A DNA stretch of 30,189 nt from a virus (Duplodnaviria; Heunggongvirae; Uroviricota; Caudoviricetes). The stretch lies in IMG/VR virus record IMGVR_UViG_2663762810_000004, positions 1-30,189 of that record, one strand, 5' to 3'. The position numbers and the translations under genes are program-made. This document shows, one piece after another, positions 22,921 through 26,667 of the stretch; positions within the stretch are counted from its first letter, which is position 1, and the number at the start of each line of letters is the position of its first letter. Below the pieces are notes generated by a model. The model was given only the letters and a program-made list of their open reading frames with translations, did not search any database and had not been told where the DNA came from.

Positions 22921-22952
22921 ATATGTATTTCACCATCAGGCGGAACAAGTCA

Positions 22953-23333
22953 ATGAGTAAATTCACCACCCCGGCGATACTGGAAATGCTGGGTCATTAC
23001 AAATGGCGGGTGTACGAACCCTTCGAGTTTTACCTCTCGGATGACAACAGCGATGTGATTAAGGTCCCGGCGGGGTTTGTGACCGATCTGGCAAGCGTGC
23101 CCCGGATATTCTGGACATTCCTCCCACCTGATGGGCGGTATGCCAAAGCAGCTATCATTCATGATTACATGTACGATAATGCGCTACGGACAAAGAAAGA
23201 AGCCGATCTCATTTTTCTGGACGGGATGCGGGTACTGGGTGTGCCAGAGTGGAAGCGTTCGGTGATGTACCACGCTGTACGGATGTTTGGTAAAGGGCGG
23301 TATGCGCAGAATAGAACCCTTCCAGGTGTTTAG
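22953..23333 (+). CDS. DUF1353-like small protein, copy 1. Start taken at MSKFTT (22953).
   Basis: Conserved VPAGFVTDLASVPR ... AAIIHDYMYD pattern recalled for DUF1353. Near-identical second copy at 25923-26303 and a decayed copy at 24808. Confidence 0.6.
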   Translation: MSKFTTPAILEMLGHYKWRVYEPFEFYLSDDNSDVIKVPAGFVTDLASVPRIFWTFLPPDGRYAKAAIIHDYMYDNALRTKKEADLIFLDGMRVLGVPEWKRSVMYHAVRMFGKGRYAQNRTLPGV

Positions 23334-23423
23334 TCACCAGTTCCGGAAGATCAGCTCGGCTGAGTCGGGCTTCTATCGACTGAAATAACTTCTCCATTTC
23401 GTTCTTGTACATATGAATTCCAC

Positions 23424-23460
23424 AGAAAAAATGCCACTTATCTGGCTTCCAGATAAGTGG
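23424..23460 (-). terminator. Rho-independent terminator for the minus-strand cargo gene; also present in the duplicated copy at about 26394-26430
   Basis: Perfect palindrome CCACTTATCTGG-cttc-CAGATAAGTGG preceded on the plus strand by AAAAAAT (a U-tract on the minus strand). Confidence 0.5.
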
Positions 23461-23485
23461 CCAGTCAACGGTAGAACGCTTCTAC

Positions 23486-24370
23486 TTAGCTTTTTGTGAA
23501 ACGGTAAAATAAATTGGGCTCACTGACAATATACAAATTAAATTTGTCATCGATAGTAATGCCCTCTGCTTGTTTAATATCCTTTGTTAATCCCGACCAC
23601 CCTGCATCCAGATAGAGTCGATCGGTAATACGTCCCACAGGATTAACTTCAACCACTATTTTTGATTCATCTGAAAGTATCAGTAGTGAAGATGTTAGAG
23701 GATGGTAATGCAGCCCAGATACATCCTTCAAAGACGAAGTGATAACGGTTGGAAAAATTTTAATATGCGCATCATCATTCTGGGGAAATATTCTGCTAAT
23801 GATTATTGGTATTTTTTCCTTTGCTGAATATAAATGCTGTTTCTCTTTATCCCAGGCCAGTCCTTCCAGTCCGTTGTTTTTGGGAGTGGCGTAATCATTA
23901 AACTTAATCTTCGAAATGACAGTATAACTAAAAGCATGTAAGTCTAATTTTACCATCCAGGCTGTGCTGTTTTTCTCACTTCCTATATAGAATACATCTT
24001 TACCAACCCACTCTACAGCTTCTGTATCCTCAAATTCAGGTAAGGTCATACTTCCCACTCTGTCGCCTTCCTTTGTCAGCCATATCAGTTCTGGTGGGTT
24101 ATTAACAACAGCAAACAGAAGTTTGTGTTTATCTGACCAGGTCAGGCCAGACAGATTATTCTTTACACCTTCAACAGGTTTGCCCTCTATGTCTGCCCGA
24201 TATGCGCTAAGATTAAGGCTTGTTGGGATATCTTCATATTTTTCATATAATCGATAGATATATATTATATCCTTATAGATGTACATAAAACAAACCACAA
24301 AAATAGCCACAAAAATTAAATACCTTAAATATATGCTCAATATTTCATCCAAATAATAAAGTAAAGCCAA
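23486..24370 (-). CDS. AT-rich cargo protein with N-terminal hydrophobic segment and beta-rich body (possibly YjiK/SdiA-regulated-like propeller; unconfirmed)
   Basis: 294 aa ORF in a strongly AT-rich block flanked by the two DUF1353 repeat copies and followed by a terminator. N terminus LIFVAIFVVCFMYIY is hydrophobic; the true start may be a later Met. Confidence 0.6.
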   Translation of the reverse strand: MALLYYLDEILSIYLRYLIFVAIFVVCFMYIYKDIIYIYRLYEKYEDIPTSLNLSAYRADIEGKPVEGVKNNLSGLTWSDKHKLLFAVVNNPPELIWLTKEGDRVGSMTLPEFEDTEAVEWVGKDVFYIGSEKNSTAWMVKLDLHAFSYTVISKIKFNDYATPKNNGLEGLAWDKEKQHLYSAKEKIPIIISRIFPQNDDAHIKIFPTVITSSLKDVSGLHYHPLTSSLLILSDESKIVVEVNPVGRITDRLYLDAGWSGLTKDIKQAEGITIDDKFNLYIVSEPNLFYRFTKS

Positions 24371-24529
24371 TCATGACTTTGGAGATGATATTAATGAGGG
24401 GCGTTTGTATCCAACTGTTTCTAAAAATTTTTTAATATGAGCAATCAGTGTCGAAGTAACCCTGATAGAACAGTTTTCTTGGCTAAATACCAATTAAAGG
24501 AGGAGTACATAACGAAACCTCAGCCAGGT

Positions 24530-24780
24530 AGTATTATTTACAAATCCACGTTTGCATTACTTCCGCTAGATACAACAGTAAGATTATGTATTTCACCATC
24601 AGATGGCGAAAAACAATGATCAATGTCTCATTTTTGAATCATGATTCAGTTCAGGGGGGGGATTGATGAAAAAAAACCGCTCAATCATGGGAAAGAGCGG
24701 TCTGAAATCATTACGCCTACAATATTAATATGAACGCTACTAGATCCGGCAGATAAAGATAAGCCTGCTGGAGGTGATTT
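24530..24780. repeat. One unit of the same periodic repeat family, followed by a unit fused to the DUF1353 pseudogene
   Basis: TATTTCACC at 24589 and 24781; GTCTCATTTTTGA at 24625; A8 plus hairpin CCGCTC/GAGCGG at about 24669-24700. Confidence 0.6.
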
Positions 24781-24807
24781 TATTTCACCAGTAGATGGGA
24801 TATGTCA

Positions 24808-24965
24808 ATGAGTAAATTCACCACTCCGTCGATACTGGAAATGCTGGGTAATTACAAATGGCAGGTGTACGACCCTTCGAGTTTTACCTCTCAGATGATA
24901 ATGTCAGCGCCAGTGATGTGATTAAAGGTCCCGGCGGGATTTGTGACCGCCTTGGCTGGTTATAG
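24808..24965 (+). pseudogene. DUF1353-like gene 5' fragment, frameshifted/decayed
   Basis: Starts ATGAGTAAATTCACCAC (MSKFTTPSILEMLGNYKWQVY), matching the intact copies, then loses frame and runs into the tail-fibre remnant. Confidence 0.6.
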
Positions 24966-25383
24966 GGGGACAGAGCCCTGGTTTCAGAGTTGACAGTTTG
25001 CCGTGGTTGTGCCGAGGAGCACAACGTACTAATCATTGCAAAACGCATGTCTGGCGATGCAGGTATGCTGCAGCTGGCAAATACCACCTCGTAATCGACC
25101 TGTAGATGCAATATTAAGGATTTCAGAGTCAAAATTTACCGGGATGTGTAGTGATCAGTCGTTTTTTTCTGTGGGAAGCTGCCGCGGGAAATCAGTACTG
25201 CTGGATACAGAAACCAGCGTGGGGAATACGGTACAGGTGGTGGCGAACAATGCCGGTATCATCGCCATTGAACCAGCAAGCAGCAACGTACTGCTTAACA
25301 ATCTGCCTTCTTCTACAACCACTGACAGAAGTGTCACGCTGGTTCAGACCAGTCTGGACGGGAAGACCTGGGTGATTACCTGA
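24966..25383 (+). pseudogene. Decayed remnant of the esterase tail-fibre gene 3' end (internally deleted, with in-frame stops)
   Basis: Nucleotide similarity to 20885-20930 and 21880-22232 of the intact gene, with stops. The last 160 bp or so (VGNTVQVVANNAGIIAIEPASSNVLLNNLPSS...TWVIT) are near-identical to 22075-22232, as is the downstream hairpin. Confidence 0.6.
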
Positions 25384-25494
25384 AAAAAAAGCCGCTTCTG
25401 TAACAGGAAAGACAGAAGCGGCTAGGTAGTGCTACTTGCGTTTTTATAAAGATTATTTCAACAATGAAAAGTACAACCTGTTATATGCATCGCT

Positions 25495-25890
25495 CTCATC
25501 CCTGAAGGCATACAATGTATTTCACCTGCAGGAAAGGTAAGGCAAGGATCAAGCTCTCATTTTTGAGAAAAATCATAGAACCAAATGAATTTAGGGTAAA
25601 AAAACGCTTCGCCACAAGACAGGATGAAGAGTCAGTCAGAAAACAAGCATAATGAATGCAATCCTACTCATTCCGTACTGTTACTCCACATAGAGGTACA
25701 GTATGTGTTTCATCATCAGTCTGTGAATATCGTGGGTCAAGGAAAGATCAGTATCTCATTTCAGAGCATGAGATGCGTTGGAACAGATAAAAATATAAAA
25801 AAGACCGCTCAATCATGGGAGAGAGCGGTGGAAGAAATTTTGACAATATGACCTACAACCAGCAGGAAAAGAAGAAACCTGCTGGTGTAG
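25495..25890. repeat. Two units of the periodic repeat family, followed by a unit fused to DUF1353 copy 2
   Basis: Motif at 25518 (TATTTCACC), a variant at about 25703 (TGTGTTTCATC) and 25896; CTCTCATTTTTGA at 25555; hairpins at about 25598-25625 and 25795-25827. Confidence 0.6.
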
Positions 25891-25922
25891 AGATTTATTT
25901 CACCAGCAGACGGAATAAGTCA

Positions 25923-26303
25923 ATGAGTAAATTCACCACCCCGGCGATACTGGAAAAGCCGGGTCATTACAAATGGCGGGTGTATGAACCCTTCGAGCTT
26001 TACCTCTCGGATGACAACGGTGATGTGATTAAGGTCCCGGCGGGATTTGTTACCGACCTGGCGAGCGTGCCACGGTTATTCTGGACATTCATCCCGCCTG
26101 ATGGTCGGTACGCCAAAGCTGCTATCATTCATGATTACATGTACGATAATGCGCTACGGACAAAGAAAGAAGCAGCTCTCATTTTTCTGGACGGGATGCG
26201 GGTACTGGGTGTGCCAGAGTGGAAGCGTTCGGTGATGTACCACGCTGTACGGATGTTTGGTAAAGGGCGGTATACGCAGAATAGAACCCTTCCAGGTGTT
26301 TAG
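25923..26303 (+). CDS. DUF1353-like small protein, copy 2. Start taken at MSKFTT (25923).
   Basis: About 95 percent identical to copy 1 at the protein level; part of a direct repeat of about 550 bp (22926-23478 vs 25896-26448). Confidence 0.6.
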   Translation: MSKFTTPAILEKPGHYKWRVYEPFELYLSDDNGDVIKVPAGFVTDLASVPRLFWTFIPPDGRYAKAAIIHDYMYDNALRTKKEAALIFLDGMRVLGVPEWKRSVMYHAVRMFGKGRYTQNRTLPGV

Positions 26304-26667
26304 TCACCAGTTCCGGAAGATCAGCTCGGCTGAGTCGGGCTTCTATCGACTGAAATAACTTCTCCATTTCGTTCTTGTGCATATGAATTCCACAGAAAAA
26401 AATGCCACTTATCTGGCTTCCAGATAAGTGACCAGTCAACGGTAGAACATGCTTTTTTATTTATTCCTGTTTTTGACAGGGAGCGTAGTTTATTTCAATT
26501 GCAGGGCAATATTGTCTACGACGCATTTCACATTTTTTTAACTTAAGCAATATGCGGTTCAAGGCGTTTAATCAGAAACCAGCCACATATCAGCCTCTTC
26601 AAACATTTCCTTAACAGTACGGCTTATCTGTTCTTTCTCATGCTTGCTGGCGTCAAACTGGCATAAA

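Follow-up and report, generated by a model that had tools for sequence, protein, structure and literature searches.

Duplicated DUF1353 cassettes around an AT-rich cargo gene in a defective Escherichia coli prophage: probable relics of recombination between related prophages

Introduction

The concept of morons and mosaic right arms in lambdoid prophages reportedly goes back to Juhala and Hendrix. Here we describe the right arm of a prophage contained in IMG/VR record IMGVR_UViG_2663762810_000004 (positions 1 to 30,189; this whole stretch of 30,189 nucleotides (nt) is called the window below), in which two direct repeats, each holding a DUF1353 gene and a hairpin, bracket an AT-rich cargo gene. 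We posit that the repeats are probably paralogous cassettes from the end of a late operon, left by recombination between related prophages, and that they bracket a moron, not a transposon. Homologous recombination between prophages has been reviewed previously (PMC6379469).

Members of the two protein families concerned have been described in other settings. TtaP of the typhoid-toxin islet is a 125-aa DUF1353 phospholipase A2 with catalytic residues H70 and D85 and an adjacent D71, and its D85A mutant is inactive (PMC11525133). The family of the cargo protein, PF06977, includes LEE rOrf1 (PMC1084347).

Results and discussion

The repeats and the modules they belong to

BLAST comparison of the window with itself aligned 22923-23477 (copy A) with 25893-26448 (copy B) at 95.1% identity (556 columns, one 1-nt gap; E = 0), and a separate repeat search agrees with it on a start-to-start distance of 2970 nt. 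Each copy holds a 126-aa open reading frame (ORF; 22953-23333 in A, 25923-26303 in B) and a hairpin with a 13-bp stem (GCCACTTATCTGG/CCAGATAAGTGGC; 23433-23461 and 26404-26432) that scores as terminator-like on the minus strand. An earlier, sequence-only reading of the window had described near-identical repeats of about 550 bp, each with a DUF1353-like gene and a palindrome, around an AT-rich gene at 23486-24370 and pseudogene debris. Self-comparison, Pfam matches and the presence of the hairpin in both copies bear out this description, as does base composition (GC 0.363 in the cargo, 0.519 in the structural genes and 0.578 in the esterase gene), except that "near-identical" was too strong: the copies differ at 27 sites, eight of which are nonsynonymous codons, and the duplication is both larger and graded.

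The repeat is the best-preserved part of that larger duplication. Positions 21871-22408 match 25051-25573 at 79%, a stretch comprising the esterase 3' end, a hairpin and spacer, and self-BLAST finds a third, partial DUF1353 copy at 24669-24956 at 77-85% (24669-24956 against 25797-26062, 77%; 22926-23085 against 24781-24949, 85%). Just upstream of a 15-nt leader that opens each repeat, A and B are not alignable. The right arm thus comprises a prophage right-end module (a sialate-esterase-like gene, spacers, a DUF1353 gene and a terminator) in three copies, which are nested and have decayed to different degrees: M1 is intact, M2 is a stump and M3 lacks most of its esterase gene (Table 1). Nested module relics are the favoured explanation because the homology is graded (95%, 79% and a third partial copy) and because both the esterase remnant and the M2 fragment carry stops; the DUF1353 5' fragment of M2 (24808-24956) is in addition frameshifted, and the last ~70 codons of the M3 esterase remnant are intact.

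Alleles at two chromosomal sites

Alleles of the arm were gathered by exact-protein look-up, which returned four kinds. The same composite occurs at the icd site (L002-L006, L014-L019), where the surrounding prophage shows strain-specific deletions, and again in a different prophage beside uspF/ompN/ydbK (L009-L011). One-copy, cargo-less alleles occur at both sites, one at icd (L008), where the prophage is degraded least and has an intact J tail gene, and one at ydbK (L007).

Comparison of the composites at the two sites locates a sharp boundary. The window and L009 differ at few positions (~0.5% overall) over 20939-25911, and at 6-20% of positions from 25912 onwards, across the body of copy B and the right flank R. 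Because of this jump at 25912, a recombination breakpoint lies at the 5' end of copy B (~25900); copy B and R are site-specific, and everything leftward is a recently shared block.

The one-copy alleles at both sites have the junctions that recombination across the repeats predicts. In L008 a single copy stands between the left flank of A (99.1%) and the right flank of B (98.1%, A/B repeat differences included), and this copy is A-type up to 23304 and then carries 23460A, the derived hairpin single-nucleotide polymorphism (SNP) of the window's copy B. The implied crossover would fall in 23305-23459; no tract of shared identity is longer once two changes private to the window's copy A (23409 and a 1-nt deletion at 23425) are set aside. 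L007 has an esterase allele ~15% different up to 22346; from there as far as the copy A terminator it is near-identical to the window, and R of the ydbK type follows, so that a mosaic breakpoint against the window lies at 22347. A further patch in the esterase gene, 22008-22037, has eight clustered differences between the window and both L008 and L009. Conversion from the downstream esterase remnant was considered for it and rejected, since the window's version matches the diverged L007-type allele and is a short imported recombination patch.

These alleles bear on what the sequence-only reading had supposed about origin and behaviour. Arrival by recombination between related prophages is supported by the breakpoints at ~25900 (against L009) and 22347 (against L007), and the comparison with related prophages that it had proposed yielded one-copy, cargo-less alleles between the same flanks. 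Of its suggestion that the repeats serve as recombination substrates for deletion or amplification, cargo loss is plausible in view of the cargo-less alleles at both sites (L008, L007), and no amplification variant was seen among the alleles.

Origin of the repeats

We propose that the repeated unit is a cassette of the kind that would end the late operon, made up of the leader, a TtaP-like DUF1353 gene and a convergent intrinsic terminator, and normally present singly as the last element after tail-fibre or esterase genes. Homologous and illegitimate recombination between related prophages would have nested three right-end modules from diverged phages, and the AT-rich YjiK-family gene would have lodged between M1 and M2 as a moron that is transcribed convergently. 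The repeats themselves would mobilise nothing, being by-products that now offer 556 nt of homology. A crossover across them, mediated by RecA or a phage recombinase, could remove the cargo segment of 2,970 nt; run backwards, the same event could put it back.

The order of events can be partly reconstructed. The shared block ends at the copy B leader, which suggests that a B-type gene lay beside R at one of the two sites before the block arrived; at least one of the one-copy A+R alleles would therefore be secondarily derived, by repeat-crossing deletion or by import of a patch. That L008 is a deletion product is favoured by the hairpin SNP and by the joint divergence of B and R. Several observations weigh against this reconstruction. 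The crossover interval in L008 depends on one informative SNP, and L008 could be a pre-insertion state, favoured by the intactness of its prophage; deletion and insertion are the same reaction in opposite directions. L007 is no simple deletion derivative of L009 because of its diverged esterase allele. Exact-protein look-up in assemblies found the copy B protein only inside the composite and never alone, so that a resident B is a deduced ancestral state, and no gene conversion between modules was detected. On the side of the cargo, the two weak sigma-70-like matches in its upstream region (24371-24534) are no commoner than in shuffled sequence.

Recombination between related prophages has nevertheless to be set against other routes to the same layout. 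An in-situ tandem duplication of the segment from the esterase 3' end to the terminator, by unequal crossing-over or slippage, with divergence and later insertion of the cargo, would account for the colinear, directly oriented modules and for the few derived sites shared by B-type copies, such as M12K, which fit a single ancestral B. We consider it improbable, as divergence is uneven: identity is 95% in DUF1353 and 79% at the esterase end, and immediately before the leader no alignment is possible. Between the two copies there is also a third, partial module, whose hairpin is of its own type, and a local duplication would not lead one to expect differences of 6-20% between sites in B and R when the sequence to their left is ~99.5% identical. 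A composite-transposon-like or autonomous mobile unit with the repeats as its ends, the analogy drawn in the sequence-only reading, would fit direct repeats around a foreign gene and a unit present at two chromosomal loci. It is very improbable indeed and holds only as a picture: no transposase-like ORF was found in 22900-26450, and by Pfam the repeats encode only the DUF1353 protein, with no insertion sequence (IS) features; the repeat search returned no terminal inverted repeats, only terminator hairpins matching each other; and there is no target-site duplication, the sequences outside A (...CAGAAGTGCAAT) and outside B (ATGCTTTTTTAT...) being unrelated. Nor are the two sites unrelated targets, in that at both icd and ydbK homologous prophage sequence continues past the repeats on either side, into the esterase gene and R. 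That reading had also worried about an assembly artefact, and the repeats do interrupt contigs built from short reads (L001 stops at 23430 and 25295). The chance of a mis-joined or falsely expanded repeat is nonetheless practically nil, because copies A and B differ at 5% of positions. In addition, the layout is identical in at least six independent assemblies, complete chromosomes among them: L003 and L004 match the window at 100% over 20000-28700, as does L005, the complete chromosome CP057166.1, over 20501-28700; the complete chromosome CP057470.1 has the same layout, and a metagenome contig carries the same composite at 99.9%.

The leader itself invites another account, in which it anchors short-homology recombination, possibly together with the hairpin, and cassettes are stacked in the manner of an integron. 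The leader TATTTCACCNGCAGG has 16 matches in the window at up to three mismatches against 2.6 expected; the ten best are all on the plus strand, nine of them within 22352-26505, and in diverged relatives it stands ~27 nt upstream of the DUF1353 start codon. The two independent breakpoints against L007 (22347) and L009 (~25900), as well as the A/B left edge (22923/25893), abut it, the cargo segment fills exactly the interval from the terminator plus 16 nt to the pre-leader that follows, and a crude survey of pairwise junctions gave a secondary cluster of homology collapse at the leader 5' edge. Most junctions in that survey fall at the start codon and not at the leader, however, the cargo carries no leader, no dedicated recombinase is encoded nearby, and ordinary homologous recombination also predicts breakpoints at the edges of conserved sequence; in addition, the precise breakpoints available are few (n = 2-4). 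We regard leader-anchored accretion as distinctly improbable, and recombination between related prophages as the explanation to which the evidence points.

We take the leader to be the 5' limit of a cassette that can be exchanged. It is a doubtful conjecture that the right end in this prophage family is built of leader-payload-terminator cassettes, with TATTTCACCNGCAGG as a preferred crossover anchor for swapping, stacking and shedding terminal cassettes, host-derived cargo included, and its ~10 copies in the window as a fossil record of repeated captures. The leader might additionally act on the TtaP-like gene as a functional RNA or a regulatory signal. It is covered by no family in Rfam, and small ORFs starting in it (MYFT...) were rejected as an explanation, the leader having no ATG in diverged relatives and so being non-coding there.

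The DUF1353 genes

Both copies match PF07087 over its full length (copy A, E 2e-31, 107.9 bits; copy B, E 6e-30, 103.2 bits; gathering cut-off 22.5 bits). H70, D71 and D85 stand at the TtaP positions in copy A and in all aligned homologues; copy B has A85 (codon 85, nt 26176), and the B copy at the ydbK site retains D85. The copy A protein shows no nonsynonymous change across all relatives examined, and the B copies of the two lineages have eight and ten nonsynonymous codons, mostly different ones. Because of this pattern, copy A appears to be a functional gene under constraint and copy B a decaying relic. The pair may offer a natural active/dead contrast for experiments. PADLOC gives no match to a defence function for DUF1353.

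Between the DUF1353 stop codon and the terminator, both copies also carry the start of a protein-like minus-strand ORF (M[Y/H]KNEMEKLFQSIEARLSRADLPELVTKHLEG...; 23317-23412 and 26287-26439) that continues antisense into DUF1353 and may be what is left of the 5' end of an earlier convergent gene.

Among 53 related loci (70-87% protein identity), DUF1353 is single-copy except for short DUF1353 fragments in L023 and L066. It directly follows a tail-fibre assembly gene or an esterase gene, and the cargo is present in none of the 53. What lies downstream varies widely, from P2 tail genes, HtrL with a sulfatase, a C5 methylase or an integrase to host genes and a toxin islet. Since the upstream genes are constant and the downstream genes highly variable, the late module ends, and a variable slot opens, at the cassette. 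The two-copy state is peculiar to the present lineage. Among close relatives in other collections, a scan of species-representative genomes returned only Citrobacter braakii (77%), viral contigs held no copy above 87%, and the boundary sequence had no viral match and a single metagenome match, to the same composite.

In IMG/VR contigs L057-L066 (~5100-7200), whose DUF1353 gene is 73% identical to copy A, this gene adjoins a GH108/PG_binding_3 muramidase gene and a pertussis-toxin-S1-like gene. These loci are a typhoid-toxin-type islet classed as viral, tying prophage tail-module DUF1353 genes to ttaP. Many enterobacterial prophages have a predicted TtaP-like phospholipase A2 as the conserved final gene of their tail-fibre modules, which bears on the origin of ttaP in the typhoid-toxin islet.

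The cargo gene

The cargo encodes 294 aa from a TTG start (gene callers give 266-276 aa), and its protein matches PF06977 from profile position 3 to 249 of 249 (E 5e-72) as well as the structure of YjiK (PDB 3QQZ; E 5.7e-44). The "SdiA-regulated" name of this family stems from a few Salmonella members. An N-terminal hydrophobic segment is kept, and the N-terminus aligns with those of homologues of 290-301 aa. The cargo matched no PHROG family and had no PADLOC match; its nearest relatives (62-69% identity) lie in Citrobacter chromosomal islands.

The palindrome that the sequence-only reading had noted would, at copy A, be the intrinsic terminator of the cargo gene and not a site of recombination or transposition, because it scores as a terminator on the minus strand and lies 25 nt beyond the cargo stop codon. 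Between the same flanks L008 is without the 2,970-nt segment, and the base composition of the cargo is distinct, both features of a moron. It can be taken as one: foreign, AT-rich, convergent, and presumably with the cassette's terminator as the end of its transcript.

In the integrase-associated islands of L072-L076 (Citrobacter and metagenome contigs, gene at 7001-7900), the closest relatives of the cargo outside its own cluster (62-69%) stand immediately downstream of genes for a TibC-like heptosyltransferase and an AIDA/pertactin autotransporter. This arrangement suggests that YjiK-family proteins may be functionally linked to glycosylated autotransporters.

Spacers and flanking features

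The intact esterase gene of M1 is ~70% identical at the nucleotide level to yjhS/nanS-p of Stx phages, and the order of stop codon, A-run and hairpin that follows it is also found in relatives. Each of the spacer units U1-U3 consists of the leader, ~60-90 nt without a credible gene and a minus-oriented hairpin (22446-22476, 22641-22667 and 22825-22851), at unit spacings of 202, 184 and 188 nt. Neither a tandem array (TRF) nor, within 22000-26700, a known RNA family (Rfam, E <= 1) was found. The 94-nt filler between M2 and M3 was tried as decayed esterase or DUF1353 sequence and rejected, its local alignments scoring no better than shuffles. A diverged version of R is common to the ydbK-site prophages up to 26733.

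On the plus strand an A-run precedes each of the hairpins at 22240-22271, 22446-22476, 22641-22667, 22825-22851, 25390-25422 and 25804-25829, which is the orientation of minus-strand terminators, and there is no minus-strand gene between these hairpins in the spacers. This series may have been left by earlier cassettes; alternatively, it may insulate against antisense transcription or mark where small antisense RNAs end. Two of the T-runs are overlapped by promoter-like sites of the form TTTACC-N16/17-TATGAT (22635-22608 and 25600-25572), and R contains a minus-strand C-terminal stump (...KEMFEEADMWLVSD*) at ~26570-26660.

Table 1. Features of the prophage right arm, in window coordinates
Feature	Position	Strand	Description and basis
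Esterase gene, intact, first gene of M1	20175-22232	+	685 aa, SASA + DUF6645, NanS-p/sialate O-acetylesterase-like; Pfam
Hairpin T0	22240-22271	-	Directly after esterase stop codon; A-run before stem on + strand, i.e. minus-strand terminator orientation; sequence reading
Spacer units U1-U3	22349-22922	+	Leader TATTTCACCWGCAGG at 22352, 22554, 22738; repeat search and sequence reading
Repeat copy A, complete DUF1353 cassette	22923-23477	+	Leader 22926-22940, ORF 22953-23333, hairpin 23433-23461, then 16 nt
DUF1353 copy A, TtaP-like	22953-23333	+	126 aa; Pfam; H70, D71, D85 present
Intrinsic terminator of cargo	23433-23461	-	13-bp stem then T-run, 25 nt past cargo stop codon
Cargo gene	23486-24370	-	YjiK/SdiA-regulated-family beta-propeller protein; PF06977, 3QQZ
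AT-rich region upstream of cargo	24371-24534	-	164 nt, GC 0.36; presumed promoter region
Relic module M2	24535-24956	+	Pre-leader and leader 24589, hairpin 24677-24702, leader 24781, DUF1353 5' fragment 24808-24956
Filler	24957-25050	.	At illegitimate junction
Esterase 3' remnant, second allele, start of M3	25051-25383	+	Pseudogene; 79% to 21871-22408 region; in-frame stops upstream
M3 spacers	25384-25892	+	Hairpin 25390-25422, leader 25518, decayed hairpin ~25605-25631, degenerate leader ~25705, hairpin 25804-25829
Repeat copy B	25893-26448	+	Leader 25896-25910, DUF1353 ORF 25923-26303, hairpin 26404-26432 with one stem mismatch
Right flank R	26449-26747	.	Leader-like motif 26491; follows single DUF1353 copy in one-copy alleles
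Antirepressor gene	26748-27407	-	Bro-N + P22_AR_C; first icd-site-specific gene beyond cassette; Pfam and PHROG
Leader copies	22352, 22554, 22738, 22926, 24589, 24781, 25518, 25896, 26491; also 13142	+	Motif search

Prophage context

The window is essentially one compact, defective E. coli prophage, with a host flank (iraM, ycgX) 99.3% identical to E. coli. A lambda-type integrase gene (1-1206) is followed by Q, lysis genes, terminase, portal, protease and capsid genes, tail L/K/I and a J stump; there is no immunity or replication region between int and Q, the capsid gene is truncated (263 aa), and of J only a 129-aa N-terminal stump is left. The right end carries an antirepressor gene, C4 antisense RNA, isrK and a duplicated icd 3' end (28511-28663), and is therefore the attR end of an element integrated at icd. 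Neither this right arm nor the cassette is present in any of the complete E. coli genomes of RefSeq.

Beyond the cassette, 26748-27680 on the minus strand resembles an immI module of the P1/Gifsy type, with a promoter-like site (27679-27650), isrK (27567-27643), C4 antisense RNA (27454-27539) and the antirepressor gene; c4-a1b1 targets at 27604-27656 score just under gathering. An 11-nt unit, TTATTCCCCCA, occurs ~3 times in tandem at 27700-27741, and L008 differs by one unit (11-nt indel 27700-27710). In the host flank beyond the icd duplication lies a direct repeat of ~50 nt at 86% identity (28669-28716 and 29527-29577). Relatives (L002, L005, L006, L008, L017) carry different, independent internal deletions of the prophage; in L017, tail L (16996) is fused to 23292 inside copy A, yet the cargo gene and the terminator beyond it are still present. 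L008, without the cargo, has the most intact tail region.

Comparison with known systems

The locus resembles composite transposons such as Tn10 and Tn5 in picture only, as two repeats around a cargo; here the repeats are direct copies of an ordinary gene and not IS elements. Nor is it an integron array: no integrase is encoded apart from the lambda-type Int at a distance of 22 kb, the leader lacks palindromic symmetry, and the hairpins differ in sequence and are terminator-like. With e14 and other icd-integrating prophages, and with the isrK-C4-ant immI module of the Gifsy/P1 type, it shares the lambda-type integrase at the left, the duplicated icd 3' end at the right and isrK, C4 and the antirepressor by attR; it differs from them in structural and cargo content.

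Copy A corresponds to TtaP in length (126 versus 125 aa), in its full-length PF07087 match and in having H70, D71 and D85 at the published positions, but it is the last gene of a tail-fibre/esterase late module outside any toxin islet and its activity is predicted; copy B carries D85A, the substitution that abolishes TtaP activity (PMC11525133). The cargo is like YjiK in its full-length PF06977 match, its match to 3QQZ and a predicted membrane anchor as in the homologues of 290-301 aa. It differs in being prophage-borne, with nearest relatives beside TibC/AIDA-type autotransporter genes in Citrobacter islands.

The locus fits among the morons and mosaic arms of lambdoid prophages: an AT-rich extra gene with its own terminator stands between conserved modules and is absent from a near-identical relative, breakpoints are sharp, and exchange has taken place between prophages at different attachment sites. 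The difference is that two copies of a module-terminal cassette, together with older module stumps, bracket the moron here, so that its gain or loss can run through 556 nt of homology instead of illegitimate events. The locus leaves the current understanding of phage mosaicism unchanged; it is ordinary mosaicism with a moron, and a well-resolved case of cargo lodging at, and loss from, prophage ends, with both states present at two sites and breakpoints placed within a few bases.

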